The notes: generated by a model not told the origin, from the letters alone. DNA of 64,000 nucleotides from Pseudomonadota bacterium (GCA_027485695.1 JAIXQO010000003.1:866932-930931); one strand, 5' to 3'. Positions 14,378-62,600 are shown, counted from the first letter of the stretch. Program-made: numbers and translations.

Positions 14378-14472
14378 GATGAAACTTTTTTCGACTTCCA
14401 AAAAAGCGTGATGCGTTCTCGCCGCAGGCGAGATTTTTGGGAGGATAGGAGTCCGGCAAGAAAAAAGTTTCA

Positions 14473-15662: not shown

Positions 15663-15666
15663 TTCG

Positions 15667-16128: not shown

Positions 16129-16169
16129 AAACGTGTGGGTGGTTTCCTTTCTTAATACAGAGACGGGGA

Positions 16170-17405: not shown

Positions 17406-17422
17406 GGTGGTTCAGTTTCTCC

Positions 17423-19138: not shown

Positions 19139-19183
19139 GGCTTAAGTTCTCGTCTCCGATTTCCTCTTACCCATTGCGTGGGG

Positions 19184-22030: not shown

Positions 22031-22034
22031 AGTC

Positions 22035-30781: not shown

Positions 30782-33700
30782 CTATTTTTTCTGCACCCGA
30801 TAGAGTTTGTTTCCTGCCAGGATCACCAATGAGCCATCCGGCTGTTCCACGATTGAGCGGATGGCGTCCTTCTTCAGCAAGCTTTTCAGATTGAGCGTAA
30901 ATTCTGGAATCACCTTTTCAGAGGGCAAGCGTTCAAACGTCGAATCAGCTCGGTAAAAGCGAATGATCTGGTCGTCTCCCGCCAGCGCCACTTGGCCGTT
31001 TTTAAGCGCAACCAAGGAACTCTCGATCCACTTGACTCCGGGGATCTCGACTGCTTTTGAAATTCCACGATTGGCTGAACCGAAAAACAGTTTTCCGCTC
31101 TCGCTGAAAACAGCGATGGAATCCGTTGGAAACAGGATGCGAGCTGATTTCCCTAAAAAGCTCTCATTCCCCCGAGGTTCAGCCGTTCGGATAAAACGAC
31201 CTTCGAGATCGCTGAATGCAAGTCCAGGTTTTCCTGGGAACACCACGGTTGATCGTCCGATTTGTGTCGGCAGTGAGCCCTCGAGAGAATATCCAGGTAT
31301 TGATGTCACCGATTCTCCTTGGACATCTGTTTCGGGCTGTTTACGAATCTGCGCAATAACGGCCTCATTTCTTGGATAGTTTGTCCCTGAGACCAGTGCT
31401 AGATCGGATTTAGTAAACACAAATTTCGATTTGGCGTATCGAGCGGTACCCGGATTGATCGCATTGGAGAGTCTCGGAGGATTGCCCTCATAGATAAGAA
31501 TAGCGCCGGCCTTATTAGTCGCCAGTACCTCGCTGTCGTTAGGAAATACTGTGAGCGTCTCTCGCACAATATCGCCGTTGAAATTAATCTCAGGTGCTAA
31601 AAATTTGAACGAAGTCGTGTTGGTTTTTACTCCAAAAAATAATGGCGGATTTCGCTTAAAGTTAAAGGTGTTTTTGATTCTTCTGATATCAGACGGCTTT
31701 TTCGGGTCAATGGAGACCAACTCAGAGCCGTTTGCGATGACGAAAGTTCCATCTTGAAGAGCCAGTGTTGAGAAAGTGGTGCTGAGGCTTCTCGAAGACT
31801 CTAGCGCTAAAACGGTCATTTTTTGGCCTTCTGGTGAATAGAGAACCCAGTTACTGTCACTGTCTTTCACAATAAAGTAGCCCTCGTCATTGATGATGAG
31901 TTCGGCCCGTTGATCAAGTTCGGTAGCAGTAGATACGATGGTCGGAGTTTCAAAACGAAGAGGAGAAATCACGGGCTTAGGGCGATCAATGACCGGAGCC
32001 ACCGTCCGAGCTTTGAAACTGACTGTGTTTTTGGAAGGTGTGCCGAAAGGGGAGCTTTTTTTGTCGGTTGCGGCACTTCGGTAATTCAATTCAATTTGAG
32101 TGAGGCCGAGTCCTGGGTCTGTATTGCCTTGAGTTGGTTTCTTCGGTGTGAATTCCAGTTTAAAATCTGCAATTTGAAAATTACGAGAGTTTTTCGAAAG
32201 GATCTTCGAGAGTTCCTCTAAGAGTTCAGGTGACATTCGAATCGACGTCAAGAGATCGTATTCATCCTCAAAGGATAGTCCAGGTTCTACGCGAATCAAA
32301 AAACCTGAAGCAGTGCCCTTAAAAAAGCGTACTCGCAGCTGATCACTCGGCAGGCTGCCCGGAACCACGCGGATGTTTTGGAAGATAGCAGCTAACTGTG
32401 ATTTCAAGCTGGTTTCGATGAGGGCGGCAGGGGGTTTATTCAGTGTTCTTTGTTTATAGTCCAAACGATAGTCCCGTACGTCACTGGGGTCGCCCTTGGA
32501 AGTTTCGATCGTAAATCGAGGCTTGCGAGTCGTGGGGGATTTCGGAGCTTTGGGTTGTATAACGCCGCCGAGATATTTGGCTAAATCTTGGGTTCTGGGA
32601 GCATTGTTGAACAGAGATACGACGTTCGCATCCACCCCTCGGAGATCTGCGTCTGTGACCAATCGTCCAGCCGCAGGAGCAGTGAAATAGATGTTGAGAT
32701 CTTTTCCATAGAGTGGGCCAGCTGCACTGCAGACCAAGCGTTTTCCCAGTGTTGACCCTCTTCTTGGGTTACTGAATGGTTTGAGTACGTCTGATTCGCG
32801 GTAACTATTCAGCGTCCCAAATGCGCGTCCGCGCAAATCCTTGGGTGTGAGATTACTTAGGAGCTCAGGATTGCCATCTTGAAATCCTGTGGCCACAATC
32901 ACGCGGTCGAACTCTTGAACCGAATCATCATTAAATTTAACCTGAAGTTTCCCGCTAGGAAGGCGAGTGACTGAAATGGCTTTTTTCGTGACCGGTTTTA
33001 AGACCTCGGATTTTACTCCACCGATGATCGGTCCCGAGTATCGAGAGCGAAGGGAATTGAGTAGCTCTTCGCAGGTGGTTTTGGATTGACCGGACCAGGT
33101 GATCGACCGAGGACGACCGGTTTGAGCGGTCGATTGACCGTAACTATCTTCGGGGCCGAACCCGAGGAAATCTTCTATGACTGTATTGCCAGAGTCTCCC
33201 GCACCAATAACGAGGATATCTTGATTCGCGTACTCTTCGAATGCCTTGCCATTGGTGTTTTTGTAGCGAAAGTATCCGGTCGCGCTGTCGAACACCGATG
33301 CTTGGCTCGGATCACGTAGCGCACGTTTCCGCTCTTCGCGATAAAATGATCGAGTTGCTTCATCAAACGCGCTTAAATCGAGTTCTCTCCCGAGGCCACT
33401 GGAGACAACCAGATGATCTGTATAGAAGTACCCGGCACTGGTGGTGATTCGAAAATCAGTTGGCCAGCCGACGGTATCTTCTGGAGGGAGCAGAGCCCGG
33501 TGCTCAACGGTATAAGCTTCTGTATTGAAAACAATTGAAGACTCCCGAAGGATTCCTCGGTTGATCGTCGAAACATCGGCGAGATCCTGAGCGTCTGGAT
33601 ACCCTGCAGCTGAAAAATCAGTAATTTGGACCGGAAGTCCGGCCAGGGCATTTTGATTGCCCACTCCACGTTGCGAGATCTGATTAATCGTTCCAGGGCG

Positions 33701-34252
33701 ATTTAAGCTATTGAGACGAAACCCAGGAGTATTGAAGGTATTGGCAACTGAGGAGCTCGCCTCGATCGTCAGAGTTTTTAGATTGGGATTCGCTCGCGCA
33801 AGGTTGTAATCGAATACAACACCTTGCGGGCCGGCGCCCAGAGTGATGATGTCATAGACCTGGGCGTCCATGTCGATTTGCCCCCGTTTGGTTGCATCGG
33901 CGACGCGTAACTTGATCTGATCGGAAATGATTCTCAAGTCTTGAAGCAGAGCTCGGACCATTTCCTTACGAGATTTTTTGTCTTTGATGAACGGAACGAA
34001 AAACTGTCGAATACTGTAGTCCTGGCTATTCGGCGGAATGCCGTAGGTATCGGACTTACTGAATGTAGCCAAATTGTCGTTAATTCCCCACGCGGCGTAG
34101 GGGTCACGTAAGAGCCAATCGGCCGTTGCCTGGGTGCAGTCTCCCAGTTCAATCGGTGGATCTGCGGTGAGAGCAGGGCTCGCAAACAGCAGGGAGACCA
34201 GGACGTAAATGGCGAGTTTTACTCGTGCGAAATGGCGAATCGGGCGTTCCAT
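30782..34252 (-). CDS. large exported multidomain protein: N-terminal two-dinucleotide-binding flavoprotein (FMO/N-hydroxylase-like) module + C-terminal beta-rich domain
   Basis: Signal/TM 'VKLAIYVLVSLLFASPALTA'. 'DIITLGAGPQGVV' (GxGxxG), 'DILVIGAGDSGNTV' (second GxGxxG) and 'RVIVATGFQ' (ATG motif) occur in the order seen in class B flavin monooxygenases. The C-terminal ~600 aa is repeat/beta-strand rich. Confidence 0.6.
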   Translation of the reverse strand: MERPIRHFARVKLAIYVLVSLLFASPALTADPPIELGDCTQATADWLLRDPYAAWGINDNLATFSKSDTYGIPPNSQDYSIRQFFVPFIKDKKSRKEMVRALLQDLRIISDQIKLRVADATKRGQIDMDAQVYDIITLGAGPQGVVFDYNLARANPNLKTLTIEASSSVANTFNTPGFRLNSLNRPGTINQISQRGVGNQNALAGLPVQITDFSAAGYPDAQDLADVSTINRGILRESSIVFNTEAYTVEHRALLPPEDTVGWPTDFRITTSAGYFYTDHLVVSSGLGRELDLSAFDEATRSFYREERKRALRDPSQASVFDSATGYFRYKNTNGKAFEEYANQDILVIGAGDSGNTVIEDFLGFGPEDSYGQSTAQTGRPRSITWSGQSKTTCEELLNSLRSRYSGPIIGGVKSEVLKPVTKKAISVTRLPSGKLQVKFNDDSVQEFDRVIVATGFQDGNPELLSNLTPKDLRGRAFGTLNSYRESDVLKPFSNPRRGSTLGKRLVCSAAGPLYGKDLNIYFTAPAAGRLVTDADLRGVDANVVSLFNNAPRTQDLAKYLGGVIQPKAPKSPTTRKPRFTIETSKGDPSDVRDYRLDYKQRTLNKPPAALIETSLKSQLAAIFQNIRVVPGSLPSDQLRVRFFKGTASGFLIRVEPGLSFEDEYDLLTSIRMSPELLEELSKILSKNSRNFQIADFKLEFTPKKPTQGNTDPGLGLTQIELNYRSAATDKKSSPFGTPSKNTVSFKARTVAPVIDRPKPVISPLRFETPTIVSTATELDQRAELIINDEGYFIVKDSDSNWVLYSPEGQKMTVLALESSRSLSTTFSTLALQDGTFVIANGSELVSIDPKKPSDIRRIKNTFNFKRNPPLFFGVKTNTTSFKFLAPEINFNGDIVRETLTVFPNDSEVLATNKAGAILIYEGNPPRLSNAINPGTARYAKSKFVFTKSDLALVSGTNYPRNEAVIAQIRKQPETDVQGESVTSIPGYSLEGSLPTQIGRSTVVFPGKPGLAFSDLEGRFIRTAEPRGNESFLGKSARILFPTDSIAVFSESGKLFFGSANRGISKAVEIPGVKWIESSLVALKNGQVALAGDDQIIRFYRADSTFERLPSEKVIPEFTLNLKSLLKKDAIRSIVEQPDGSLVILAGNKLYRVQKK

Positions 34253-42268: not shown

Positions 42269-44104
42269 GTGATTCGAAAGTATTGGACGCAAGGAAAATG
42301 CCTAGTCAGCTGGTCGTTGATCGCCTCAGGTGTAAATTCGGCGTTCGGCTACGATCTTGAATCGACCATCGAGCAATTCGAAAAATCAGCATTTTCAAGC
42401 GTATCGACGTGCGAGGAGTCGCTGTCGGCTGACAGCGTTCTATCCGAACGAAGACGTGAATTGAAATCGAAATCTCGATATGGAATCGAACAGGTTCTCG
42501 AAGCGGCGGGGCTCACTCCAGAGAAAAGAAGGCTCTATCAAGCGCGTCGTGTGGTGGGGGATTATTACGACGAAGTGCCATTGAAAACGCCAGACTTGTT
42601 CCTGAAAAGGCTCCGTTCAATTCTGACGGAAAGAGAATACTTAGATGTATCTGGGCAAATAAAGGCGTGGAATAGAAACGAGTTATCGGCATTTAATGAA
42701 CGTTTAGAAGCCCTTTTTTTTGATTTGTTTTCTGACCTCAGTAGCCGGCGATCCGAGTTGAGTCTCATTGAAATGCGCAAAGAGCTGCTGGACCTTTGTC
42801 GACTGTACTCGAATATCTTTGATCGGAGTAGTTCGGTCTACGAGCGCGCAATCTGGATCTCTCAATGGGCAAGTAAACAAGAGGATCGGGCACGTTTTGC
42901 GTATGAAACGATGCTGAGTTTTACTCGGGATCGGGAGCCAAAGCTGGTCCTGGGTTTCATGCAGGCGAACCCATTTTTTAAAGATGCAGTTCGTTTGAGG
43001 CACGATCCGACTCTCATAGTGACGACTGCTTTTGAAAAAGAGACACCTAACGCAGCAGTTGTGAGCTTTTACAGAAATATGCGCTATTCCGATGAAGCTT
43101 GGTTGGCCATGAGCGTAGACGCACGAAAAGTCATTCTGGATAAAATGAGTGATCACTTTGTATCTACGGTCTACGATACTGAGAAATTGCGGTCCACTCC
43201 AGATTACTTTGCGAATAAGCTTAAAACAGAGGGTATGGTAAGTGGACGAGTTATTTTTGAGTTCACACAAGATGGATACGCAATTTCTCCAACTGCGACG
43301 ATTCGTCGTATTGAAGAAGTCGCAAAGATTACCAACGAGACTCACTCCTTTCATGGCCATATCGTCGGAGAAGTTCCCAGCTCGGATCCACAAGAGTTCT
43401 TGAAATTCGATGCGTGGTTTAAAGATGCTAACTGGCAGCTCATGTTTCAAGGATTTGAAGAAGGGCTTTTTCCAAATAAATACACTCAAATTAAAAAAAC
43501 AAGTTATTGGGAAACATTTGGTGACGCTGCCGAGAACAAGTTTCTTACGTTGGGCTATAGGACTGGTATCTATGGAAACGCTCGAACACCCGGCTATATT
43601 AAGGTCGGCTTGGAACTTCGAGATCCTACCCGAAAAATCGCTCGATGGGATGGGTTGATCCAACGGATAGCGGAAGTGATTGCTCAGCGGAAGTGGAATG
43701 TCCTGGCTGATAACTTATCGACCGGCATCAAGAGTCTCAAGATCGATGAGATCGAGTCTATACTTTGGAGCGCGGGCATCGAACAGGAGTATATGATCAA
43801 GATGCTGGTGAGCGAGGAATCAAATTCCCGTTCGATCGGCGTACCTTTGTCTAACTTTCGAGAGTTGATGATCACTAACTGGAAGAATGGAAAATCGCGG
43901 CCTATTCCCGGCGCTGTCATGGATCGTTTGGATCGGGCCAGAAAAATATATTTAGATGGCCTTGTTCATCTCAGTCGAGAAATAGCGATATTGGATCGAC
44001 GTGGTGAATCTTATTCGAGCGAAGATATTCGGAGTGCGATTCTTCACTGGGTTACCGAATGGGCTCAGCAAGCGAGGCCAGCTGAAATTTTTTCGGCGCT
44101 ATGA
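42269..44104 (+). CDS. exported hypothetical protein, paralog A of a tandem pair (611 aa)
   Basis: Shares long collinear blocks with the next gene: 'REPKLVLGF..PFF..AVR...DPTLIVTT.FEKET', 'HSFHGHIVGEVP', 'GLELRD.TRK'. Confidence 0.65.
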   Translation: MIRKYWTQGKCLVSWSLIASGVNSAFGYDLESTIEQFEKSAFSSVSTCEESLSADSVLSERRRELKSKSRYGIEQVLEAAGLTPEKRRLYQARRVVGDYYDEVPLKTPDLFLKRLRSILTEREYLDVSGQIKAWNRNELSAFNERLEALFFDLFSDLSSRRSELSLIEMRKELLDLCRLYSNIFDRSSSVYERAIWISQWASKQEDRARFAYETMLSFTRDREPKLVLGFMQANPFFKDAVRLRHDPTLIVTTAFEKETPNAAVVSFYRNMRYSDEAWLAMSVDARKVILDKMSDHFVSTVYDTEKLRSTPDYFANKLKTEGMVSGRVIFEFTQDGYAISPTATIRRIEEVAKITNETHSFHGHIVGEVPSSDPQEFLKFDAWFKDANWQLMFQGFEEGLFPNKYTQIKKTSYWETFGDAAENKFLTLGYRTGIYGNARTPGYIKVGLELRDPTRKIARWDGLIQRIAEVIAQRKWNVLADNLSTGIKSLKIDEIESILWSAGIEQEYMIKMLVSEESNSRSIGVPLSNFRELMITNWKNGKSRPIPGAVMDRLDRARKIYLDGLVHLSREIAILDRRGESYSSEDIRSAILHWVTEWAQQARPAEIFSAL

Positions 44105-44159: not shown

Positions 44160-46028
44160 TTGAAACATTATCTCCAACCGTGCTTTCATTTGATGATGGC
44201 GCGACAGCGCAAATTACTCTTGGCATTATGGCTATCATTAAACTTGCTGCTATGTTCGTCCAAGATTTCTGTCGCCTACGACTGGGAAAGCGGCACGTTA
44301 GATGAGTTGGATCGTTCGGCGCTTTCTCCACTCTCCGGATGCGAGGAGGCGATCCTTAGTTCTGAAACAGTCCTGAGGGTTCGCCAGGCGGCGCGGTTAG
44401 AGGCTCGCCGTGACCTCGAAAAAGTATTGGAATCAGCGGGGCTCCCTCCCGAAATCAGAAATCAATATCGAGCAGCTCGAGTAAACGCTCGATCAGAGAG
44501 CCTATTTGGCGCGGTTTTTTCTTGGGCGAGCTTCAATCGGGAGATTCAGGCGGTCCTGACGGATCGCGAGTTTGCACTCGTTTCAGGTGTCGCGAAGACC
44601 TGGAGCAATGATTTGATGAAAGAGCTCGGCCAACGGCTGATGTACGATTTTTTGGCGGATATTCAGTCTCTCAAACGCCAAAGTGAGTTTTGGAGCGTTC
44701 AAAGACAAGAGCTTGGACTCCGACAACTCATGCGGACTTATTCGTTAGTCATTGAAAAAAATACCTCGGTTTATGCTCGCGCCGCGGAGCTTGCCGCGCA
44801 AGCGACGACTGATGTGCAGGCAAGACGGGTATACGAACTTCTCCTTCGTTACTCAAGGGATCGCGAACCTAAACTCGTGCTCGGGTTTTTGGACGCAAGC
44901 CCGTTTTTTCGGGAGGCGGTTCGGTTCGAGGATGACCCGACTCTCATCGTGACCACGTCGTTTGAAAAAGAAACCTTCCAAGCAAAAATCCTCAAGTACT
45001 ATAAGCACTCAAAATTCACCAACCAACAGTGGCGTTTCATGAGTGATGAGCAACGGGTAAGCGAGATCTCCGAGTTTCGAGAGCTCATCGGTTACTTGCA
45101 CGGAACCAATAAAACACCCACTGCTCCGTCATATTTCGCCGAGAACCTCAAAAGCGAAAGCATCAAGAACGGTCGACACCTTTACGAGGTCGTGCAAGAT
45201 CGCTACGCACTTACGCCGCAGGAAACCATTCGTCGTGTGCGCGAAGTCGCGGCGATCACCGGTGAAATGCATTCATTTCACGTGCATGTAGTCGGCGAAG
45301 TTCCCAAGGTATCGGAACCGGAGTTCTCACGGTTCGCGATCTGGCACTGGGAAGCCAATATTCAGAGTATGTTGCAGGGAATGGAAGAAGGACTCTTTGG
45401 TACGACGTTGACGGGCTACCCGGTGCGGCCAATTGAGGGTGGTACATTTGCTCGGTCGGATATGAATAAGCTTCTCACCGTTGGTTATCGGCGAGATATC
45501 TACGGCTATTCGCTCCGTCGTGGATTCATGAAGATTGGTCTCGAGCTTCGCGATGTCACTCGCAAATTGGAAGTTCTTTCGGATTTGATACTGAGATTTT
45601 CACGAGCGATGGCAGGCCGAATTTGGAAAAATACCGGTGTAATCTCTTACTCTTCGCTCGCCCTGCCCGATTCCAATCTGAAATTCATTTTGAGGGGGCG
45701 TGGAATCTCTGAGGAGGCGATCGATCAGTTGAGATTCACGCCGAATTATCCGGCCGTGCTGCAGCTTCCACTTCTCAACTTTCATCAAATGAGAGTGGTG
45801 GATTGGAAAACGGGTCAAATGCGCTCGATCGACGAATCCGTTTTAGCGCGTTTAGACGAAGGTCGTGAATACTACTTGAGTGGTCTAGTCGCCCTAGGTA
45901 AAGAAATCGACCAATATCGAGAAAGTGGAACTCCCGTCTCAAATGTGGAGCTCTCCAGTGCAATCAAAATGTGGCTCCAGGAATGGGCGGTGCGATACCG
46001 TCCTAGAGAAATCTATTCTGCTTATTGA
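44160..46028 (+). CDS. exported hypothetical protein, paralog B of a tandem pair (622 aa)
   Basis: Signal-like 'RKLLLALWLSLNLLLCSS'. The start may be the internal 'MMARQRK' near 44193. Paralogous to 42269-44104. Confidence 0.65.
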   Translation: MKHYLQPCFHLMMARQRKLLLALWLSLNLLLCSSKISVAYDWESGTLDELDRSALSPLSGCEEAILSSETVLRVRQAARLEARRDLEKVLESAGLPPEIRNQYRAARVNARSESLFGAVFSWASFNREIQAVLTDREFALVSGVAKTWSNDLMKELGQRLMYDFLADIQSLKRQSEFWSVQRQELGLRQLMRTYSLVIEKNTSVYARAAELAAQATTDVQARRVYELLLRYSRDREPKLVLGFLDASPFFREAVRFEDDPTLIVTTSFEKETFQAKILKYYKHSKFTNQQWRFMSDEQRVSEISEFRELIGYLHGTNKTPTAPSYFAENLKSESIKNGRHLYEVVQDRYALTPQETIRRVREVAAITGEMHSFHVHVVGEVPKVSEPEFSRFAIWHWEANIQSMLQGMEEGLFGTTLTGYPVRPIEGGTFARSDMNKLLTVGYRRDIYGYSLRRGFMKIGLELRDVTRKLEVLSDLILRFSRAMAGRIWKNTGVISYSSLALPDSNLKFILRGRGISEEAIDQLRFTPNYPAVLQLPLLNFHQMRVVDWKTGQMRSIDESVLARLDEGREYYLSGLVALGKEIDQYRESGTPVSNVELSSAIKMWLQEWAVRYRPREIYSAY

Positions 46029-46034: not shown

Positions 46035-47387
46035 CTAAGCCAAAATCGAAGTCAAAACCGGGGCGTTCACGGTCTCTTTGCCGTTCTTACGCCAAAGCGA
46101 TGGGTCGACATTGAATAGCGAACAAAGCGTATTTACGATGCTAGCGCTCGTGATGTAGTCGCTCAGGTTCACGGTTGGTGGTAAGTCCGTGCGCACGGTT
46201 TGACTTGCGAAATCAAATGGACGCCCCATGAGATTCAATTTCTGAGGATCGATTTTGAGGCGCGCGGGTGAGAGTGTCTCGTTCACGGTTTCGAAATCCG
46301 AGGCTCCGATCGTAAGGCCGCCGCGGATACCTTTGCCGCCGATCAAGAACGAATTGTTGTACGGATTGTGGTCCGTGCCAGTGTCATCAATCGGCCGCCC
46401 CACCTGACGATTCGTTCGTCCAAACTCTGTACCCACCAGCACCGTTGTCACATCGAGGAAACTTCGCGTGGAATCAAACGGAGTTTCGGAGAGGACCTTA
46501 AATGCAGTGACGACGCTGTCGAGGCATTTTTGTACGGTTTTGGGTGTTTGTTTTGTAGACTCCGAGTCATGCGTATCAATGGTTTGCCCGCCTGCCGTGA
46601 GCGAGAGGTACGCCGTGCGAGTTGAGTGGAGTTTCATCAAATTCATGAGACGTCCGACGTAGGCTGCGAAATTTTCTCCACCCGTGGTCACCGGATCGGG
46701 ACCGAGCTGGCCCAGTTGAGAGTGGAGTTCTGTCTGACCCGTCAAACCACCGTATAAGAGCTGAGAGCCCAGTGCCATTCGACTCGAGCCTAGGCCAACG
46801 GCCTGATAACGGTTCTTGAGCGCTTCAAAAAGCGGATTTCCCGCGACGAGCGCTTGAGAACGAGAGACACGTTCTTGGAGCGTGTTGAGGGTGGTACGTG
46901 AAAGTGGCGCGACTTTTGAGAGGTTATTGAGTGGATAGGGAATGCCTCGATTGGTGATCGAATCGAGTGGGGTCGTGTTGCCATTCAGGTGCGGCACGAA
47001 AAAACTTCCGCCAAATGGATTGCCTGAGAGCATGAGGTTCACGTTCTGTTGGTGTCCGTCGAAATCCGGGCTCATCCAGACTCCGCGAACGATCGAGAAT
47101 CGGTTTGCATAGGTGCGTAGCGGGTCAAACGCCGAGGTCACGAGTGTGTTTCCGTAAGGCACTGGCTCGACGCCGAAATTTTCCGCACGAAGTCCCGCCG
47201 CTTTGAAGGCGAGTGGTCGCGAGTCCCAAACGTGAGTGAGGTCCAAGCCGTTTGGGAAAAAGAGCATGAGAAAAAAATGCGGTTCCGGCGGGGGCGTCGT
47301 GGATGCTCCAAGAGCCGTGTTCGACGACAGAAGTGCCGGGAGCAGTGGGAGAGCCGAGAGGGTCGTGAGGAATTCTCTTCTTTGCAT
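46035..47387 (-). CDS. Tat-signal protein of the DUF1501/DUF1552 type (sulfatase/alkaline-phosphatase-like superfamily)
   Basis: Twin-arginine signal 'MQRREFLTTLSALPLLPALLS'. Length 450 aa. Last gene of a 3-gene operon. The family assignment is from memory. Confidence 0.6.
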   Translation of the reverse strand: MQRREFLTTLSALPLLPALLSSNTALGASTTPPPEPHFFLMLFFPNGLDLTHVWDSRPLAFKAAGLRAENFGVEPVPYGNTLVTSAFDPLRTYANRFSIVRGVWMSPDFDGHQQNVNLMLSGNPFGGSFFVPHLNGNTTPLDSITNRGIPYPLNNLSKVAPLSRTTLNTLQERVSRSQALVAGNPLFEALKNRYQAVGLGSSRMALGSQLLYGGLTGQTELHSQLGQLGPDPVTTGGENFAAYVGRLMNLMKLHSTRTAYLSLTAGGQTIDTHDSESTKQTPKTVQKCLDSVVTAFKVLSETPFDSTRSFLDVTTVLVGTEFGRTNRQVGRPIDDTGTDHNPYNNSFLIGGKGIRGGLTIGASDFETVNETLSPARLKIDPQKLNLMGRPFDFASQTVRTDLPPTVNLSDYITSASIVNTLCSLFNVDPSLWRKNGKETVNAPVLTSILA

Positions 47388-47393
47388 GATAGC

Positions 47394-48020
47394 CTACTCC
47401 AGAATCACGTAAGGGTTGAGAAGGATGAGAGCGAGCGCGAATCGAAGTCGATCCGTCCCATCGGTCGCGGCGCCCGGTTGCGGGAATGCAGCGACATCTC
47501 CGAGCCAAGCGGTGTATTCACTCATAGGCGCATCGAATCCTGCGAGGGATGTCCAAATCTGCGAGAGCAGCGACTCACTGAGAGGTCCTGCGACACAGCC
47601 TGATTCAAGGAGTGCGATCCATTCAGGCGTGACCACCGGATTCGGCGGACGACTCGTGGAGCCCGGGCAAAAATTCAGCTGATCTTCGACGAATCCGCTG
47701 ATCAACAAATTCCAAAGCAAAAAACTGAGCGAATTCGGTGCACCGTTTTTGATCGTGACGTCGCTATCGTAGTAACCCAAGAGTGACAAGATCGGACGAT
47801 CGGTCAGCGATTCAGAGACACCTAAGTATTGTCCGAGATCGATCCGCGTGCCGATCCCACCGATTCGATCCTGTAACATTTGCTCGTAAGGGATAAATCC
47901 TCGGTAATGAGCGGCGCGGGGATCCGGGCTCAAGGCCGATCGCGAGAGTGGCGCCGCGAGCGTCGTATGCGCTAAGCCGACGGATAAGATTAAATATAGA
48001 AAACCGATCCAGTTTTTCAT
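47394..48020 (-). CDS. small secreted hypothetical protein (208 aa), middle gene of operon
   Basis: Signal peptide 'MKNWIGFLYLILSVGLAHTTLA'. ATGA overlap with the upstream gene. Confidence 0.5.
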   Translation of the reverse strand: MKNWIGFLYLILSVGLAHTTLAAPLSRSALSPDPRAAHYRGFIPYEQMLQDRIGGIGTRIDLGQYLGVSESLTDRPILSLLGYYDSDVTIKNGAPNSLSFLLWNLLISGFVEDQLNFCPGSTSRPPNPVVTPEWIALLESGCVAGPLSESLLSQIWTSLAGFDAPMSEYTAWLGDVAAFPQPGAATDGTDRLRFALALILLNPYVILE

Positions 48021-49981
48021 TTCTGTGCCTCCCGGTCCGCCCAGAGGTAAAGAGTTTCGCGTTCTTTGGTAGGGATTTCCATTCGAAGCGGCATGCGACG
48101 AGCGGGATCCGAATGCGAGAGTCGTTGGACGATTCGAGAAAACGTCTCACGGCGAGGCACGGGGTTTCCGGCAGCGTCGCGATGCGAGAACCCGGTAGAG
48201 CCGTCGGCGAGCAGGATTTGGCGATCGAGCGCAAGTCCCGCCGCTGGTCCGGCCGAGGAGTGGCACATCACGCAGCGGCTCTGAAGCAAGCTCGAGACTT
48301 CGCAAGGGAGGCTCGGATCAGCGGTTTCTCCAGGAGCGAAGTCATAGCACTGGTTGGTCACCCGTGCGCCGTTCTTGAATGACTCACTGGTCAGGATTTT
48401 CTTCCAGACGTTTTTGAGAGCGAGGTTCGGAGTGGTTCCGTGCGAGCCACGGTCGCGAATGAATTCTCGGGTGAGGTAGTTGAGGTAGCCCGGGCTAACG
48501 GATTGATCTTCGCCCACGGAGTATTCAAATAGCCTACGAACGAAACAGCTTTTGACCTCGGGGGCCGATTTCAAAATAGCCTCCAAGTCCGCGATGGATT
48601 CGCCGTATTGGTTCAAGCTTGGGTTCGTGGTCGAGCGAACGTAGCCGACTTCGTAAGTGCGGCCAGTACCCGGCGCCGCTTTCCACTGTTGGTCATAGTC
48701 GGCCATTTTGATTTTAGCGCCGTCGGTGAATGTGAGCGTGTCCCAGTTTTTGTAATCGAAAAACCAGCGACCGAATCCGCGAAAAAACCCTGCCATGGGA
48801 TCCAGTTTGTAGTGGCAGGCAAAACACGAAGGATCGCTCCCGTGACGACCGCCTCCGGAGTGCGAACTCGGGATCTCCACTCCGACCGGAGTGAGGTCAT
48901 CGCAGAAGTAGGTCTTCAGCATATAGGCGGAACGTTTACGGTTGAAATTGGTCGAAGAATTGCCTTTGTCGGCGAAAATCTCGAACGTCGTCGTAAACGC
49001 CAATTGCTGAGCGGGCCCGCCGATGGGCGAGTAATCTATGGTTCGCAGGTCCAAGATGGAGTTCAGCGTGTAGGTACTCGGCTCAAAAGGAGCAAGCTGA
49101 GTGAAAAGCCAATCGAATGCCTGAATCGTGCGCTCGGTATCACGAACACGATCAAACCCAATCGGTGTGTTGCCACGGCAAGCGGACTGAACCGGATTCA
49201 AAAGAAAATCGTAGGTGAAGTAATTGTCGACGATCGTCCCGTCCATTCCGATTCCGTAGGCGGCGCTGAAAATACCTTTTTCGCCGGCGAGCACGGTGGC
49301 GCAGTACTGATCCCAGGTGACGTTTGTATCGGCAGCGAGTGTTCTCCAGTCCATGAACCAACCGCGAATTTCCGCATAGCGACGAGTGCGCGCCGCTTCT
49401 ACAGATTCGCCGGGATTCTGAAGTTTATCGGAAAGTTTTTTCGAGAGCGGGCGCATGTAGACAGGAGTCCGAAGGGAAACGAGCGCGTCGAAATAGTCTT
49501 TGCCGCGGAAGTACTCTTGCACCGAATGGGTCGCCACCGGCGATCCGAAAACCTTGTCGTCATAACCATCGAACGTGGCGTCCGGGCGACGGATTTCGCT
49601 CACGCGTTGACCCAGGTAAGAGAGGGTGAACATGAGGAGCGAGTTCTCAAAATCCCGCTGCCCCATCCATTCATCCAGGATGTCGTTTTCGCTCATGGTG
49701 TCCCAGCGCGTGATCGGGTCGCGCGGGCTTAAGCTTTTGCCGTTTCGTAGAATGCGCGAGGCGCGTTCCATCCAAACGCGTTTCTCATAGAGGGGATCAG
49801 TCGGTGGCACCGCGGCTGCGATCGGAAGCGTCGTGATCGATACTCGGGTTGTTCGGGGAGACAGAGTTTCCGATGGAATTCGGCGAGGAAGGGGGCGGCT
49901 GAATTCGGCAGAGTGAACGGAGCCCGAACTTATGAAAATAGCCAACAACACGAATCGCGCGCACAGCGACCAGAGCTTCAT
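48017..49981 (-). CDS. secreted protein with two CxxCH motifs (Planctomycete-cytochrome-like DUF1549/DUF1553/DUF1588-type partner of DUF1501/1552 proteins)
   Basis: Signal 'MKLWSLCARFVLLAIFISSGSVHS'. Motifs 'CFACHYKLDP' and 'CVMCHSSAGP'. Adjacent to and co-oriented with the Tat-signal gene, as is typical of these gene pairs. Confidence 0.55.
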   Translation of the reverse strand: MKLWSLCARFVLLAIFISSGSVHSAEFSRPLPRRIPSETLSPRTTRVSITTLPIAAAVPPTDPLYEKRVWMERASRILRNGKSLSPRDPITRWDTMSENDILDEWMGQRDFENSLLMFTLSYLGQRVSEIRRPDATFDGYDDKVFGSPVATHSVQEYFRGKDYFDALVSLRTPVYMRPLSKKLSDKLQNPGESVEAARTRRYAEIRGWFMDWRTLAADTNVTWDQYCATVLAGEKGIFSAAYGIGMDGTIVDNYFTYDFLLNPVQSACRGNTPIGFDRVRDTERTIQAFDWLFTQLAPFEPSTYTLNSILDLRTIDYSPIGGPAQQLAFTTTFEIFADKGNSSTNFNRKRSAYMLKTYFCDDLTPVGVEIPSSHSGGGRHGSDPSCFACHYKLDPMAGFFRGFGRWFFDYKNWDTLTFTDGAKIKMADYDQQWKAAPGTGRTYEVGYVRSTTNPSLNQYGESIADLEAILKSAPEVKSCFVRRLFEYSVGEDQSVSPGYLNYLTREFIRDRGSHGTTPNLALKNVWKKILTSESFKNGARVTNQCYDFAPGETADPSLPCEVSSLLQSRCVMCHSSAGPAAGLALDRQILLADGSTGFSHRDAAGNPVPRRETFSRIVQRLSHSDPARRMPLRMEIPTKERETLYLWADREAQK

Positions 49982-50342
49982 AGCGTCTCATCCTCAAAGG
50001 ATATCGATGGAGTGAGGGACCGCACGCCGGATCGAATCGTTTATCAGTGTTTCCGTCGGATGGTGATTTTTGTAAAGTGTGAATTCAATGGTTTCGACCG
50101 ATGACATTTCTAAGTGCGTCATGAAGGCAGAGCACCAGATTCTAAAAATCGTCTGCTGCACTGGATCGCCTACTCGTGGTCATTTGCGCTATCGAGCTCG
50201 TTCACGAGATTTTTCCGCCTATTGAACCTATGTTAAGACTCATTCGATGGATTTCGGAAAACTCTCTCCTCATACCGGCATTGATTTCTCGTTGGCAATG
50301 ACGAGTGATTTTCGTCGGAATCGCGGAAAAATAAATCGCCCG

Positions 50343-51149
50343 ATGCAGGTCTATCTCGGGTGTCCGGTCTGGCAACACCCCACCTGGATGGGGCGAGTGT
50401 TTTTGCCAGGTACACCGTCGCGGGAATTTCTATCGGTCTATTCTCGCATGTTCAACGCGGTCGAGGTGAATGCGACCTTTTACAAGATTCCCGATCCTAC
50501 ATCAGTGGAGCGTTGGGCCGATCAAGTTCCGGATGACTTTCGATTCGTCGTGAAAATACCTCGTCAGATTTCACACGATGCGGCGATATCGGCAGGAATG
50601 GGAGCACTGCGCGCATTGATCGAATCTGTCGCTCATTTCGGTGCCAAGCTCGGAATGATTTTTCTACAGCTTCCTCCGTATTTCGGTCCGGACGATCGGA
50701 GGGAGCTTGCGGCATTCTGCCGGCAGTTTCCGGAGTCGTTGAAACTCGCGATCGAGTTCCGTGATCCGCGTTGGTTCGAGAGACGTGAATTTAATCCGCG
50801 AACAGCCGAGTGGTTCGCCGAGAAGAATATTTCGCTCGTGATCACCGATACGGCGGGTAGGCGTGACGTCAGTCATGGCGTGGTCACTTCGCCGACGATG
50901 ATGGTGCGATTCTTAGGGAACGAACTTCATCCCACCGACTATGACCGCGCTCGTGCCTGGATCGATCGCTTAGGCGAATGGGCGGAATCCGGTGTACGCG
51001 AGACCTATTTTTTCATGCACCAACCGAACGAGGAGACGGCGCCCGATCTCGTAGCGTGGATCTACGACCAATTAAAAAGCGATCCGAGGTTTGCGGTTCG
51101 GTTTCAGTGGACTCCCGCACCAGTCGATGTTCAACCGTCGCTGTTTTAG
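50343..51149 (+). CDS. DUF72 (UPF0759) family protein
   Basis: 'MQVYLGCPVWQHPTWMGRVFLPGTPSREFLSVYSRMFNAVEVNATFY' matches the DUF72 N-terminus. The ORF track begins 32 codons earlier, at 50247. Confidence 0.65.
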   Translation: MQVYLGCPVWQHPTWMGRVFLPGTPSREFLSVYSRMFNAVEVNATFYKIPDPTSVERWADQVPDDFRFVVKIPRQISHDAAISAGMGALRALIESVAHFGAKLGMIFLQLPPYFGPDDRRELAAFCRQFPESLKLAIEFRDPRWFERREFNPRTAEWFAEKNISLVITDTAGRRDVSHGVVTSPTMMVRFLGNELHPTDYDRARAWIDRLGEWAESGVRETYFFMHQPNEETAPDLVAWIYDQLKSDPRFAVRFQWTPAPVDVQPSLF

Positions 51150-52003
51150 CGCCAGCGGATCGTGGGTAGTACGTAGTAGATTCGCTGGTTTTCCACCGCG
51201 GTCGTCGTGCGAACGTCCGAAAACTTCGCTCGAGCCGGTAGGCCGAGTGGAAAATTCTGATCACAGAGATGGTGGGTTTGAGCGCAGTTCGGATTGGCCT
51301 CGGGCGAGGATTTCATCGAAATGCGAAGCTTCTCGGTCGAAACATCCTGGCAGAACGGGCGACTCCGATTCAGGTCGAGTGGATCCACCGTGATCTGTTC
51401 TGCAGCGAGCGCCGTCTCGATCAAATCAATGCAAGCGCGGCGATTGGGAGAGTTCGGCGAATCGAGTCGTGAGTAGCTCGCTCCGACCGGATCCTGTTTT
51501 TGTTCGCTCTTCGCATAGAGGTAAGCTCCGAATTGCGTCGTAAACGTGCCTCCGCCGAATTGGTAGAGGAGGCTTGCAGCATCAAACGTCTGTCCGACAT
51601 GAAGCGGTCCGAGTTGGCAACTCACGCGGAGGAGCTGGGGAGACGAATCGGTTACGGATTTGAGGATGAGTCGGGTGGTGGAGGACCATCCGCCGATATT
51701 GAAACGACCGACCACTTGGTAGTCGCCGCTTAAGCGGGAAATGCCGGAGAGATCGTCGCTGGGGATGGAGCACCAACGCTCGAGGCGGGGATGGCTGCTT
51801 GAAACTGCACCATTCACGAAATAGTAGGTGCCTTGCGCCTGGGAAGTGACCTCGGTCGGGAGATCAATGCCGTTTAAGCGAATGATGGTAGAGCGGATGG
51901 GAGTTTTTGAAATCGCGAGATCCAGGCCGATTTGAGCGGGGCCCGCGGCGCTCGCCGAGGCTTGGCTAAACCCAAGGGCCAAGATGAAAACAATCAAACG
52001 CAT
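51146..52003 (-). CDS. secreted hypothetical protein (285 aa)
   Basis: Signal peptide 'MRLIVFILALGFSQASASAAG'. Confidence 0.5.
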   Translation of the reverse strand: MRLIVFILALGFSQASASAAGPAQIGLDLAISKTPIRSTIIRLNGIDLPTEVTSQAQGTYYFVNGAVSSSHPRLERWCSIPSDDLSGISRLSGDYQVVGRFNIGGWSSTTRLILKSVTDSSPQLLRVSCQLGPLHVGQTFDAASLLYQFGGGTFTTQFGAYLYAKSEQKQDPVGASYSRLDSPNSPNRRACIDLIETALAAEQITVDPLDLNRSRPFCQDVSTEKLRISMKSSPEANPNCAQTHHLCDQNFPLGLPARAKFSDVRTTTAVENQRIYYVLPTIRWR

Positions 52004-59635: not shown

Positions 59636-62600
59636 TTAAGGATTGACCCATTCGGCGATGCCGTACATCGAGTTTTGGACATAGATGAAAATGAGAGAAT
59701 TGCGGCCCTCGTGATAGTGGAGCGCGTGGCCGTTACAACTGATCGTCGAGGACGGAAACGCGAGTTCCGTCTCTACGTTCGTATCGACATTGCGTTTGTA
59801 GAGTTTTCCATCCGTCGCGCAGTAGTAAATGAATGAATCGGCGCCGACTCGACGGAAATCAAATGCACGAATCCCCCTTGAGGTGGCTTCGAACGTAGAA
59901 ATCGTTCCTCCGTCATGTGGGATCGCTCGAACATTTGCTGCATCTCGGTAGGCGAGGAGCCATTGGTTGGTGACGGAGTCGTATTTGTACTGGAGCGCGA
60001 CTTCGAGTCCCATCGATCGATCGAGAAAACAGTCGGTGCCGAGTTGGTCGTTGCAAAGATTGAAAACGGGCGAAGGCGAATCCGCAGTTTTACCGTAAAT
60101 GATGGTATTGGAGTGATCGGTCGGATTAATCGTACGGATGTTATTGGCGCCGTACTGACCGCTATTAGCTGTCAGGTAGCTGATGATTCGAGTTGGACTC
60201 TGACCTGCATAACTAATTCGCCCGTTTGTCTGCACCGTCCCCGAAGGAATCACCCATCGACCCGTGCTTAAGTCTAAGTAGGAGAGTGATCCCCAGGAAA
60301 TGGTGTAGTAAAGTCGCTGGAGCGTCGGATTGACGACAAATCCGCAGGGCATTCCCCATCCGCATTCAGGAATATTGGACTGTGCGGCTACCGCGTTGTG
60401 GCCCGGGCTTCCGTGAACTCCCGTTCCGGCGACATTCACGAGATTCCCTCCGGCGAGAGGGAATTTCACCAGCTGGTGTTCGAGTTTGTTTTTGACATAA
60501 ACTTCGGTGTCTGTAGCGGCGAAATAGTTGATTTGAGAGAAGCGCGCACTGACCGGGTTTTCTCCGATTCCATAGTTCCGAGGCTGACCGGCGAGCGTTT
60601 GAACCTTGCCGTCGGCATCGATGGTCCGAATCACTCCCATATCTAGAAAATATATTTTTCCGAATTCGTTGACGTGTACAGACATGATTGTGGCAGGGCA
60701 GCTCAGTGCGGCTGTTCCATCCGCGCATCGCCCATTTTGACCGTTTCCAATCACGTTATTAAATGTATTGGTCGTGGGTTCGTAGATTCTGAGGTTGGCA
60801 CGGCTATGAGCCAGGAGGTAGAGGCGACCGTTCAGTCCGGTATAAAACGATCCGCTCCAATCAACTGCCGTACTGTGAGGCGTTTGTGCGAGTCCCGTGT
60901 TGATATCAAAATTGGTTGCAGCACTCGCGAAGTTCGGTACGTTGCTTGGTTGGCTGAGGCACTCGGTCCCAATGCCTCCACCCGATTTGCGCATGATTTT
61001 GGTGATGGAGGAGGATGCCTTGTCGTAGGCGATTCCGGTTCCGTTCATGGGACAGGTTCCGTTGTTAAACGAAGCGTACAATCCCGACATATTACCGGTT
61101 CCGAGGCCCTCTAGAGTGAGGTGTTTGACGACGGTTGCGTCCGCAAGAGTGGCTCCAGGCAAGTAGTACCAAATCTCTTTGCCGCGCTGAAAATAGATGC
61201 GCCCGTCTGGTGTCGGAGTTAGCATCAGATAGTTTGGATTGGCGCTTCCCAAGTTAAATGAACGAGCGAGTGAGCCGCTCGTGGTATTTGCTCCGCCTCC
61301 GATCAGGTGCTCGAGCGTCCAGGGGGTTTGACTGAGATTGAGTCTGAGTAGTCTTGTGAAGTCCCAGATGAGGAGGTTCCCTTGATGGTCGAGTACGATC
61401 TGCGCAAGGCTTGCGAGCGTTGCGTTTGCAGCTGTTCCTCCGACACCCGATTGCGTTCCGGTTTGAGGGATCAAGAGTCTCAGAAGTCCGTCCTCTGGGG
61501 AGACATACGCAAGCCCTTGGCCCGGATATTTATAAAAAATATAACCTTGATTGGTCACGGCAACGGCCCCGTTGTCGGCGGCATCGTTGAATCCTCCTTC
61601 GTTCGCGCCCAAGAGTAGAGCACTCCTTGCGGATCCATTGATCCCCAAGCTCGTATTGCCGGCGAGGAAACGGATGCTACCTGTGTTCAGGGCGTTCGAA
61701 GTGGAAAACACCTGTGAAACACCGCTGTCTTGGACGCGCACTTGAATCTTAAAATAGCTGCTCGTCGGTGAACCGTTCGTCCATTTAAAACAACCCGTCG
61801 CGCCACCGCTCGGTGTACATGCGCCATTTGCGCTGTTGCTCAATCCCGAGCTCGCCAAAACGAATGTGGATTCGTTCGTCGTGTAGTAAATAGAGATGTT
61901 TCCTGCGGGAATGGCTGAATTGTCTTCGATTTTCCACTGGATGAAGACGCTTGATCCGGATGGCACGGTTGTGTCCGACGAACTGAGCGGAGATGCTGGA
62001 GCATCAGAATTCGCTGCGGTTACACCTGAGATCGTGGGAGGCGGATCGGGAGTGTAGTTGATCGTATAGAAATCTTGCAGTGTCGTATCGGTTCCGGTGG
62101 AGGTGTTTCCCAGCTCGTCTCGAAACCAAATGCGGATGTCATAGGCACCGTTAATAGTACCGATTTGAAAAGGATAGTTGGAAATACTGAGACTCAGGGT
62201 GTTTGATTCCGAAATAGAGCTCAGTGTCGTCCAGCACGAATCATTCGATGGTGGCGTCGAGCTGTAGTTGTATTTCAAACAGAATGCTGCGATCGGAGTG
62301 ACGTTCGCCGTACTCTGGAAATTGAGCAGCAAGTTATTGTTACCGGTGGTCGTCAGATCGCCGACGACTCGGAGCTGAGTTGCATTCGGTGGGACAGAAT
62401 CGTAAGTGAGAGTAAGCGCGGAGGACGTTGCCGAAATGTTCCCGACCGCGTCTTTGGCCCAAGCCCTGAGAGCACGAGCTCCTTCGCTCGTGTCTGTGAG
62501 TGTAAATGCGATTCCGCCTGCCGTGGTGACACAAGATTTCCATCGGGAGTCGCCTGCAAGCGGTGCAGCGCCGTTTTCAGAAATGAGAACATGGGTGCGA

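Follow-up and report, generated by a model that had tools for sequence, protein, structure and literature searches.

The stretch of DNA analysed here (the window, 64,000 nucleotides) carries on its minus strand three adjacent genes, referred to as A, B and C, and the intergenic region that precedes them:

48017..49981, minus strand: gene A, 654 aa, a candidate exported di-haem c-type cytochrome
47394..48020, minus strand: gene B, 208 aa, a small protein exported by Sec, from a family not yet described
46035..47387, minus strand: gene C, 450 aa, a divergent DUF1501 protein that is exported by Tat and has an alkaline-phosphatase-superfamily (AP) fold
49982..50246, minus strand: 5′ intergenic region of A, common to A and a divergent DUF72 gene

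The A stop codon and the B start codon share the sequence ATGA, a 4-nt overlap (48017-48020), and a GGGAGG ribosome-binding site lies 9 nt 5′ of the B ATG. B and C are separated by 6 nt (47388-47393), a GGAG being present within the 3′ end of B. These three minus-strand ORFs and both junctions agree in their coordinates with the first-pass annotation, which had also proposed a translationally coupled operon, transcribed as a unit, whose products are exported; that proposal is supported. A is preceded by a Shine-Dalgarno sequence (GAGGA, 49995-49991) located 9 nt 5′ of its start codon. One sigma-70-like match was found upstream of A (50236-50209); since the number of such matches was not above the shuffled expectation, the promoter of A is unproven. 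The N-termini of A and B were judged by eye to be of the Sec type. A, B and C form a real, tightly coupled three-gene operon, the products of which are all exported. A type II secretion cluster is present within the same 64-kb window.

In protein A, the Sec signal is followed by a disordered linker (about residues 19-59) and then by a helical core of a novel kind, and a cytochrome c domain occupies the C-terminal part; its features are:

48767..49024, minus strand: PSCyt3/DUF1588-like segment, about residues 320-405 (Pfam PSCyt3, 14.5 bits)
48812..48826, minus strand: putative haem motif 1, C386-F-A-C389-H390; C386, C389 and H390 invariant in 53/53 homologues
48020..48349, minus strand: C-terminal class-I cytochrome c/PSCyt1-like domain, about residues 545-654 (Pfam PSCyt1, 20.0 bits, cutoff 22)
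48260..48274, minus strand: putative haem motif 2, C570-V-M-C573-H574; C570, C573 and H574 invariant in 53/53 homologues

The two CxxCH motifs, at residues 386-390 (CFACHYKLDP) and 570-574 (CVMCHSSAGP), had already been pointed out in the first-pass annotation; both proved invariant in 53 homologues of 31-47% identity. Motif 1 belongs to the family's best-conserved block, NSSTNFNRKR...FCDDLxP...H380...C386xxC389H390xKLDPM396AGFF, which lies inside the PSCyt3-like segment and offers H380 (53/53 homologues) and M396 (51/53) as candidate distal ligands. For motif 2, the distal pair Met630-Pro631 (codons at 48089-48094) is likewise invariant (53/53). Cytochrome_CBB3 matches were obtained for 35/53 homologues and PSCyt1 matches for 15/53; when the family profile was compared with mitochondrial cytochrome c (E 0.06), the CxxCH and the Met were in register. 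Judged from these sequence features, it is almost certain that two c-type haems are bound covalently to A, one in the novel helical core and the other in the His/Met class-I cytochrome c domain.

No solved structure resembled the core of A. In the window protein, the matches to PSCyt3 (14.5 bits, cutoff 27) and PSD2 (16.3 bits, cutoff 25.8) were both sub-threshold. At E <= 0.01, PSCyt3 was found in 39/53 homologues (best 27.2 bits) and PSD2 in 11/53; a few just made the Pfam cutoff (P0007, 27.2; P0119, 26.0), and the PSCyt3-then-PSD2 order was kept. DUF1800 (PF08811) gave no match in window A and was found in 11/53 homologues at E <= 0.01 (best 24.1 bits, cutoff 26.1), over profile positions of about 226-294 of 419 only, on the same segment that matches PSD2. 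DUF1549 and DUF1553 were found neither in window A (E <= 0.1) nor in the 53 homologues (E <= 0.01), and PSD3/PSD4/PSD5 (DUF1587/1592/1595) were absent from A and these same homologues. When A was aligned with a canonical DUF1553 protein by hhalign, only the cytochrome domain (PSCyt1) aligned. The A family is largely unannotated, with a core that appears distantly related to PSCyt3/DUF1588, PSD2/DUF1585 and DUF1800. A lipobox-like motif was seen in 23/53 A homologues, as well as in 17/67 B homologues.

The 208-aa protein B had been regarded in the first-pass annotation as an extra protein inserted between two partners. A first, word-indexed search did return one B relative only, a sparse result caused by the word pre-filter; with E <= 1e-3 as the limit, the B family in fact comprises 182 cluster representatives, nearly all of them stand-alone proteins of 165-270 aa, and B is present in 57/61 loci, which refutes the insertion claim. 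B is a conserved third component, not a local insertion. Its conserved features are NGxPN (N92, P95, N96), C118, C142, W156, W172 and a C-terminal NPY(F/V)(L/I)L, Cys142 being invariant in the family and Cys118 and the two Trp nearly so. No Pfam or NCBIfam model matched B in the scans performed, no relative was found in the PDB, and no relation to A was detected. One natural fusion was found on a single short metagenomic contig, in which the C-terminus of A is joined through a linker to a B without its signal peptide.

Three features of gene C bear on its assignment:

47304..47387, minus strand: twin-arginine signal peptide (MQRREFLTTLSALPLLPALLSSNTALGA), R3 and R4 nearly invariant
46365..46577, minus strand: conserved Asp/His motif region, with D271-x-H273, E321-F-G-R324 and G337-T-[D/N]-H340-N (invariant columns)
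46260..46262, minus strand: R376 codon; His in 51/52 family members

That C is a Tat-signal, DUF1501-type protein, as previously annotated, was borne out by its N-terminus (MQRREFL; an RRxFL-like motif is present in 43/52 homologues) and by its score against DUF1501 (PF07394; 52.7 bits, cutoff 27, E 5e-14). All of the C homologues among the matches listed (120/120) have a precomputed PF07394 match, and the N-terminal part of C matches DUF1552 weakly (17.2 bits, cutoff 30). The DUF1501 alignment spans profile positions 246-338 of 390 only, and in an hhalign comparison with canonical DUF1501 the sole aligned part was the Asp/His region (94% probability, 35% identity, 84 aa). The Pfam scan that had been proposed as a check thus returned DUF1501 above threshold, but DUF1552, PSCyt1, PSD2 and PSCyt3 (DUF1588) below it, and neither DUF1549 nor DUF1553.

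The core alpha/beta fold of the AP superfamily is present in C, the closest folds being those of NPP, PafA, sulfatases, PMH and PlcH; identity to the enzymes of this superfamily is only 8-15%, and no PDB entry matches C at the sequence level. The earlier description of C as sulfatase-like holds at the level of the fold only, since the formylglycine motif (C/S)-x-(P/A)-x-R is absent from C and corresponds to no conserved column in 52 homologues. The residues D49, D55, H112, D271, H273, E321, R324, T338 and H340 are invariant in the family. D49, D271, H273, [D/N]339-H340 and H376 are arranged in the same order as the motifs of alkaline phosphatase/NPP, by analogy with which the Asp/His motifs of C would be metal ligands. 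The helix after strand 97-104 begins with the invariant H112, which, from the secondary-structure order only, appears to occupy the usual position of the Ser/Thr/formylglycine nucleophile; S/T51 is an alternative candidate. The window protein has Arg where 51/52 relatives have His376, so this copy of C may have an altered site. The same Arg is found in an independent sister assembly (P0245), and the next relative (P0124) has His.

The order A>B>C was colinear in 57/61 evaluable GTDB loci, from Bdellovibrionota, Alphaproteobacteria and Myxococcaceae, and in 5/5 metagenome loci, the commonest A/B junction being the ATGA overlap (28/69 loci); the flanking genes vary from locus to locus. When the search was begun from B, the three B relatives sampled lay in an A-B-C context wherever the contig allowed. 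As the three genes and both CxxCH motifs are conserved among homologues, the operon is beyond chance. Pairwise distances computed for any one of the three proteins track those of the other two (r about 0.9), which indicates that A, B and C are inherited as a unit, with no partner swapping. Several MAGs (SMAG_U1352, GL94_DN_concoct_230, CA_2019_TPBF_148) contain 2-3 paralogous triads. Four A homologues have no B or C nearby; A can thus be encoded, if not also function, without them. The window contains one copy of this three-gene operon, which is conserved and inherited autonomously.

The Planctomycete PSCyt/DUF1501 module is known and has no function assigned (PMC3542564, PMC5615132). The branches described combine PSCyt with DUF1501 or DUF1552 (Planctomycetes/Verrucomicrobia), or DUF1800 with DUF1501 (Proteobacteria). 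The first-pass annotation had taken the locus to reproduce the Planctomycete pair; kinship with the module was upheld, but A lacks DUF1549/DUF1553 and matches a canonical DUF1553 partner through its cytochrome c domain only. In the PSCyt1-PSCyt2(DUF1549)-PSD1(DUF1553) + DUF1501 module (Kamneva et al. 2012, PMC3542564), as in the triad, a haem-motif partner lies directly upstream of a Tat-type DUF1501 gene, and the two have in common a cytochrome c domain of the PSCyt1 type and, in DUF1501, the C-terminal EFGRT...GxDH core. In contrast, A has no DUF1549/DUF1553 region, C aligns over 84 residues only, and the canonical DUF1553 + DUF1501 locus used for comparison (Catenovulum adriaticum plasmid pCadTS8_2) has no B. 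The PSCyt3(DUF1588)/PSD2(DUF1585) + DUF1552 (HXXSHH) system of Planctomycetes/Verrucomicrobia, also with no function assigned (PMC5615132), resembles the triad in its large exported partner with a CxxCH in a PSCyt3-like block, in the PSCyt3-then-PSD2 order, in the adjoining Tat-type AP-like protein, and in the weak DUF1552 match of the N-terminal part of C. It differs in that the matches of A are mostly sub-threshold, PSD3/PSD4/PSD5 are not detected, the cytochrome c domain of A lies at the C-terminus, the enzyme partner is recognised as a DUF1501 and not a DUF1552 protein, and the triad has a conserved third gene and other host phyla. The DUF1800 + DUF1501 pairs of Proteobacteria and Actinobacteria consist of two genes, one for a helical partner and the other for a DUF1501 protein exported by Tat (PMC5122149). 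The sub-threshold DUF1800 matches of 11/53 A homologues, on their PSD2-matching segment, recall these pairs, which, unlike the triad, have no B gene. To our knowledge, DUF1800 proteins have neither CxxCH motifs nor a cytochrome domain.

Relative to the AP-superfamily enzymes with which it was compared (NPP/ENPP, PafA, S1 sulfatases, phosphonate monoester hydrolase, EptA/MCR-1, LtaS and PlcH), C stands apart by a seemingly His residue at the nucleophile position, the lack of a formylglycine motif and an obligate haem-protein partner. In layout only, the triad is like the SoxAX/SoxYZ/SoxB, QHNDH and MauG-type systems, which in the periplasm combine a c-type cytochrome and a small Cys protein with a metallo-hydrolase or catalytic subunit that is exported by Tat; Pfam and NCBIfam scans detected no homology between the Sox, Qhp or Mau families and the triad proteins. 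The triad is the Bdellovibrionota/Alphaproteobacteria branch of a 'haem partner + AP-fold Tat enzyme' module, and this three-component form of the uncharacterised 'haem partner + DUF1501/DUF1552' module is new. We hold its anatomy and family placement with high confidence.

Other explanations of the locus were considered. A canonical Planctomycete-type PSCyt1/DUF1549/DUF1553 + DUF1501 pair bearing a lineage-specific 208-aa insertion would agree with the DUF1501 score of C, with the weak PSCyt1 match at the C-terminus of A and with the single B relative of the first search; it is rendered highly improbable by the lack of DUF1549/DUF1553 in A and its 53 homologues, by the restriction of the DUF1553 alignment to the cytochrome domain and by the 84-aa extent of the match of C to canonical DUF1501. 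It is also very hard to sustain that the CxxCH motifs are metal-binding or disulfide Cys and A a non-redox helical scaffold. Every cytochrome Pfam match in window A is indeed sub-threshold, and motif 1 lies in PSCyt3, a domain for which haem binding has never been demonstrated; however, the Cys, Cys and His of both motifs are invariant, an invariant Met-Pro lies at the expected distance, the ligand register agrees with that of solved cytochromes c, most A homologues match Cytochrome_CBB3 or PSCyt1, and A is exported by Sec, as c-type cytochrome maturation requires.

Three further readings concern what the proteins do. C might be a plain periplasmic or secreted hydrolase (phosphatase, phosphodiesterase or sulfo-esterase) for nutrient scavenging, with A as a substrate-binding or haem-sensing helper that transfers no electrons to it and B as a chaperone or stabiliser. 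The nearest folds of C (NPP, PafA, sulfatases, PMH, PlcH), the 2-3 paralogous triads of several MAGs, as expected of substrate-diversified scavenging enzymes, and the type II secretion cluster of the window speak for this, and PlcH, a Tat-exported AP-fold phospholipase with the small partner PlcR, provides an analogue for C and B. We nevertheless consider it unlikely, as it leaves unexplained both the invariance of two haem sites and a distal Met and the retention of a haem or helical partner in every branch of the module, and no canonical O-nucleophile motif is evident in C. A role in envelope glycan or lipid modification, in which C would act like the AP-fold transferases EptA/MCR-1, LtaS and BcsG on a periplasmic polyprenyl-phosphate-linked or polysaccharide substrate, with A and B as accessories, seems quite unlikely: an association with a GT87 cluster occurs neither in the window nor in any of the Bdellovibrionota loci and may be clade-specific synteny, and C, unlike EptA and LtaS, has no membrane domain. 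Finally, A could be a MauG-like di-haem oxidant that equips B or C with a protein-derived cofactor or a cross-link, or could attach a substrate oxidatively, as in Sox, to a Cys of B for subsequent hydrolysis by C. The di-haem MauG or QHNDH systems and SoxAX/SoxYZ/SoxB offer parallels of layout, and the invariant Cys142, the nearly invariant Cys118 and two Trp of B and the natural A-B fusion would fit. This remains improbable, given that the simplest explanation for both Cys of B is a structural disulfide in a periplasmic protein, that B lacks a SoxY-like C-terminal Cys arm, that the sister branches DUF1800 + DUF1501 and PSCyt + DUF1501 work without B, and that radical-SAM or other maturation genes are absent nearby.

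Taken as a whole, the best explanation is a conserved triad with the following proposed periplasmic mechanism, to which we give about an even chance. C is exported folded via Tat, and A and B via Sec; the three would assemble in the periplasm, tethered by a lipid anchor in many species. C would bind metal and act on an anionic substrate, probably of the phospho- or sulfo-ester type. A would couple this step to electron transfer via its two haems, its C-terminal cytochrome domain serving as a relay to the respiratory chain or to an oxidant, and B would be a structural or adaptor subunit bound beside that domain. That C binds metal, that A has a redox role and that B serves as an adaptor is inferred. 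A physical A-B-C complex, likewise deduced, seems somewhat probable, and redox-coupled catalysis, as opposed to plain hydrolysis, is put forward tentatively. Literature searches returned no functional study of any triad member. All the characterised AP-superfamily enzymes that we know of are hydrolases, transferases or mutases, and none is a redox enzyme; a redox partner is therefore without precedent. At its most speculative, and with little probability, the triad would be a periplasmic haemo-enzyme of a new, three-subunit kind in which an AP-fold C takes part in redox chemistry wired through a di-haem A of unsolved fold, with B bearing a protein-derived Cys/Trp cofactor or acting as a covalent substrate carrier. 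If true, the AP fold would for the first time be seen to form the basis of an oxidoreductase, and the whole PSCyt/DUF1800 + DUF1501/DUF1552 module would gain a mechanism.

Reading of the ORFs confirmed the three genes proposed in the first-pass annotation, all on the minus strand and here termed A, B and C in operon order. Coordinates of the triad and its nearest neighbours are as follows:

49981..48017, minus strand: gene A, ORF of 654 aa
48020..47394, minus strand: gene B, ORF of 208 aa
47387..46035, minus strand: gene C, ORF of 450 aa
50247-51149, plus strand: DUF72 gene, divergent from gene A
51146-52003, minus strand: 285-aa secreted protein with no family match
42269-44104 and 44160-46028, plus strand: tandem paralogous secreted proteins of 611 and 622 aa, adjoining C

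A and B overlap in the sequence ATGA, which holds the stop codon of the former and the start codon of the latter, and the B ATG is preceded by GGGAGG, 9 nt upstream. B and C lie 6 nt apart, and the end of B contains GGAG; GAGGA lies 9 nt upstream of the ATG of A. All three products bear export signals, namely Sec-type signals at the N-termini of A (MKLWSLCARFVLLAIFISSGSVHS/AEF) and B (MKNWIGFLYLILSVGLAHTTLA/AP), and in C a classical twin-arginine motif (MQRREFL). The latter had been predicted by the annotation, as had the presence of CxxCH motifs in the partner protein; A contains two (residues 386-390 and 570-574). A lipobox-like motif is missing from the window proteins but occurs among the homologues of A (23 of 53) and of B (17 of 67). 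Promoter- and terminator-like matches were no commoner at the locus than in shuffled sequence, and a search of the window for tRNA or Rfam elements found none.

The annotation had read the 208-aa gene as an insertion between the two partners of a known gene pair, a reading that was not borne out. A scan with the A profile of one genome per GTDB species returned 125 relatives and 80 loci, whose hosts include Oligoflexia, Bdellovibrionales, Bacteriovoracia, Silvanigrellales, Hyphomicrobiaceae, Rhodomicrobium, Xanthobacteraceae, Parvibaculaceae, Myxococcaceae and others. When the ORFs of the 61 loci with enough downstream sequence were searched with HMMs, A, B and C were colinear in 57; the commonest A/B junction was the ATGA overlap (28/69 loci). 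A word-indexed search detected a single B relative because of its pre-filter. Exhaustive phmmer rendered 182 B cluster representatives (E ≤ 1e-3), almost all of them stand-alone proteins of 165-270 aa, and three sampled from this list lay between A and C wherever the contig permitted. All five metagenome or MAG loci fetched via A homologues were just as tightly coupled, with a gene encoding 189-213 aa placed between the A-like gene and the DUF1501 gene; the products of these middle genes are 26-40% identical to B. Since the neighbouring genes vary between loci, while pairwise distances are correlated among the three proteins (r ∼0.9), the triad is the inherited unit. Four loci from MAGs of Xanthobacteraceae and other Alphaproteobacteria (L018, L022, L041 and L059) contain an A homologue but neither B nor C in the 6 kb downstream of it; in L041, A begins 7 nt downstream of a gene for a GT87 membrane glycosyltransferase. 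Some MAGs of Bdellovibrionales, Oligoflexales and 'Pseudomonadota' bear two or three separate triads (loci L010/L042/L053, L033/L048/L070, L024/L037 and L055/L074), and the triad has therefore undergone paralogous expansion in some genomes.

The window is otherwise ordinary chromosome, with uvrB, cysS, gltX, uvrC, an amino-acid ABC transporter, a type II secretion cluster, a P450 gene and others. The type II secretion system, DUF4423 and the closest homologues point tentatively to Bdellovibrionota. The DUF72 gene and the 285-aa gene, which end in a convergent 4-nt overlap, are kept beside the triad in a sister strain (locus L087). The 611- and 622-aa proteins both carry the motif HSFH(G/V)H(I/V)VGEVP and have no Pfam or NCBIfam match; the GC content around their genes is 0.46, versus ∼0.53 elsewhere. 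These two genes were considered as members of the system and ruled out by their absence from the sister strain, in which uvrB adjoins C directly; the pair is thus a 3.9-kb insertion outside the system. Elsewhere in the window, the type II secretion cluster is complete (∼10307-23228, minus strand: GspC, secretin GspD, ATPase GspE, GspF, GspK-like and PilM/GspL-like proteins). An ORF of 1156 aa (30782-34252, minus strand) gave a marginal Thi4/NAD-binding match as its sole signal, and a 1369-aa protein (59636-63745, minus strand) has Ig-like repeats and an NHL-like region, both being otherwise unannotated. Adjacent genes for an acyltransferase-family protein, a cytochrome P450 and a PLD-like protein (1975-5896) may form a small lipid or secondary-metabolite cluster.

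At least 483 full-length proteins are homologous to A (31-48% identity), and nearly all of them bear the label 'hypothetical'. The Pfam matches of A itself are sub-threshold: PSCyt1 at residues 570-631 (20.0 bits, cutoff 22), PSD2/DUF1585 at 461-491 (16.3 bits, cutoff 25.8) and PSCyt3/DUF1588 at 379-403 (14.5 bits, cutoff 27). Neither A nor any of 53 homologues scanned singly matched DUF1549 or DUF1553 in Pfam, and NCBIfam gave no match for A, B or C. Among these 53 homologues, matches were obtained to PSCyt3 (39), Cytochrome_CBB3 (35), PSCyt1 (15), PSD2 (11) and DUF1800 (11), and the domain order was constant. It reads:

N-terminal half: helical, unannotated
Residues ∼320-400: PSCyt3 segment
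Residues ∼450-520: PSD2 segment, overlapping the DUF1800 signal (profile positions 226-294)
Residues ∼545-650: cytochrome c domain

Both CxxCH motifs (C386, C389, H390; C570, C573, H574) are invariant in the 53 homologues, as are M630, P631, H380 and K392, while M396 is found in 51. Six more cysteines are invariant (227, 268, 360, 479, 545 and 560) and probably form three disulfides. A Foldseek search of the PDB with A found nothing, and when PDB sequences were searched with profiles of the three proteins, the cytochrome c domain alone was matched. Judged from its sequence, A is very probably a c-type cytochrome that carries two haems and has a new core fold.

Conserved features of B comprise an NGxPN motif, C118, C142, two Trp residues and a C-terminal NPYFLL-like motif. 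Searches of Pfam, NCBIfam and the PDB found no B relatives above weak Pfam matches. A relationship between B and A was also considered and rejected, hhalign showing nothing shared beyond the signal peptide. Two of 67 B homologues gave weak matches to Pfam PSD5/DUF1595 (E ∼0.09). Since the large PSCyt3 proteins of Planctomycetes contain PSD5 as a domain, B might be a split-off PSD5-like domain. A fourth representative from the phmmer list, the metagenomic protein P0382 (JGI sample 3300047160, 1.7-kb contig), is a natural in-frame fusion, made up of the last 258 residues of an A homologue (43% identity to A), a short linker and a B domain devoid of a signal peptide; this is a single instance known from the protein sequence alone, and might reflect an assembly error.

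Protein C belongs to Pfam DUF1501 (52.7 bits, cutoff 27), although only profile positions 246-338 of 390 are aligned; its N-terminal part gave a sub-threshold DUF1552/HXXSHH match. The predicted structure shows an alkaline-phosphatase (AP) fold, and an Asp/His constellation is conserved in the sequence. Residues D49, D55, R57, H112, N115, D271, H273, T315, E321, R324, T338, H340, D364 and N419 are invariant in the family, and position 339 is Asp or Asn. Alkaline phosphatases and NPP enzymes have a characteristic bimetallo ligand pattern, which the motif order of C (D...D-x-H...[D/N]-H...H) resembles, the comparison being one of motif order without structural superposition. Since no formylglycine motif was found in C, and the helix that normally opens with the Ser, Thr or formylglycine nucleophile appears to open with the invariant H112, the catalytic chemistry of C may differ from that of known AP members; S/T51 is a candidate alternative nucleophile. 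At position 376 the window protein has Arg (codon 46260-46262), although His occupies this site in 51 of 52 members of the family. An independent sister assembly (P0245) shares the Arg, whereas His is found in the next relative (P0124); the substitution may mean that the metal or substrate site is altered in this lineage.

Modules in which a haem partner is paired with a DUF1501 or DUF1552 protein were first noted some twenty years ago, reach high copy numbers among Planctomycetes and Verrucomicrobia and, to our knowledge, have been assigned no function as yet. The papers describing them give the function as unknown (PMC3542564, PMC5615132), in line with the annotation, and our literature search found no functional study of any branch. 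As a comparator, a canonical PSCyt/DUF1553 plus DUF1501 locus on a Catenovulum plasmid was used, obtained by tblastn of C and the A core against plasmids, which otherwise rendered noise. In hhalign comparisons A shared only the cytochrome c domain with the canonical DUF1553 partner, the similarity of C to the canonical DUF1501 protein was confined to 84 C-terminal residues, and B shared nothing with this locus. Given so limited an overlap, the triad belongs to the same broad module but to a separate branch. The proposed Planctomycete-type pair therefore holds at the level of the module, while the branch is a different, poorly annotated one whose A protein lacks DUF1549 and DUF1553; among the Pfam families named in the annotation, DUF1501 alone exceeded its cutoff in the window proteins, DUF1552, DUF1588 and PSCyt1 remaining below theirs. 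By sequence comparison this branch is nearest the PSCyt3/PSD2 and DUF1800 partner types. The triad is a conserved three-component variant of the module and does not represent a canonical Planctomycete pair into which a gene was inserted.

As to mechanism, we consider it rather likely that A, B and C assemble together in the periplasm. In such an assembly C would be the metal-dependent catalytic subunit and B an adaptor docked by the C-terminal domain of A. That A relays electrons via its two haems, the overall reaction including a redox step, is a more tentative proposal, which we hold to be possible. The last ∼90 residues of the A family profile align to mitochondrial cytochromes c (E 0.06), with the CxxCH and the distal Met in register, and CxxCH motifs of a non-haem nature appear highly improbable. 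Plain hydrolysis by C, with a non-redox helper, is unlikely; a maturation or carrier scheme of the MauG or Sox type has a slim chance of being correct.

The triad might instead modify an envelope glycan or lipid, which seems distinctly unlikely. Of 83 related loci, 21 have a GT87 gene near the triad, which hints at a tie to envelope glycans; all 21 are alphaproteobacterial (within L012-L077; for example L023:2302-12397). The arrangements vary: 10 of these loci contain a GDSL/SGNH (AlgX-like) hydrolase gene, 10 a UbiA prenyltransferase gene, nine a 514-aa gene of no known family directly after C, and nine a 128-aa gene, also of no known family, just upstream of A. DUF1800/DUF1501 pairs are reported to be linked with bacterial chitin synthases (PMC5122149), which points likewise to envelope glycans. 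However, the GT87 association was not found in the window or in the Bdellovibrionota loci.

Should the haem partner indeed exchange electrons with an AP-fold enzyme, this would be new chemistry in a very well studied superfamily. The triad adds to the module a conserved third protein family (B) without a database model, a probable di-haem partner (A) whose core fold has no solved relative, and sub-threshold sequence links between the PSCyt3/PSD2 and DUF1800 partner families. The branch it represents, found in Bdellovibrionota, Alphaproteobacteria and Myxococcaceae, is compact and single-copy and has three components. Its presence in the genome of at least one isolate (Rhodomicrobium sp. R_RK_3, locus L032) makes it more tractable experimentally than the many Planctomycete paralogues.
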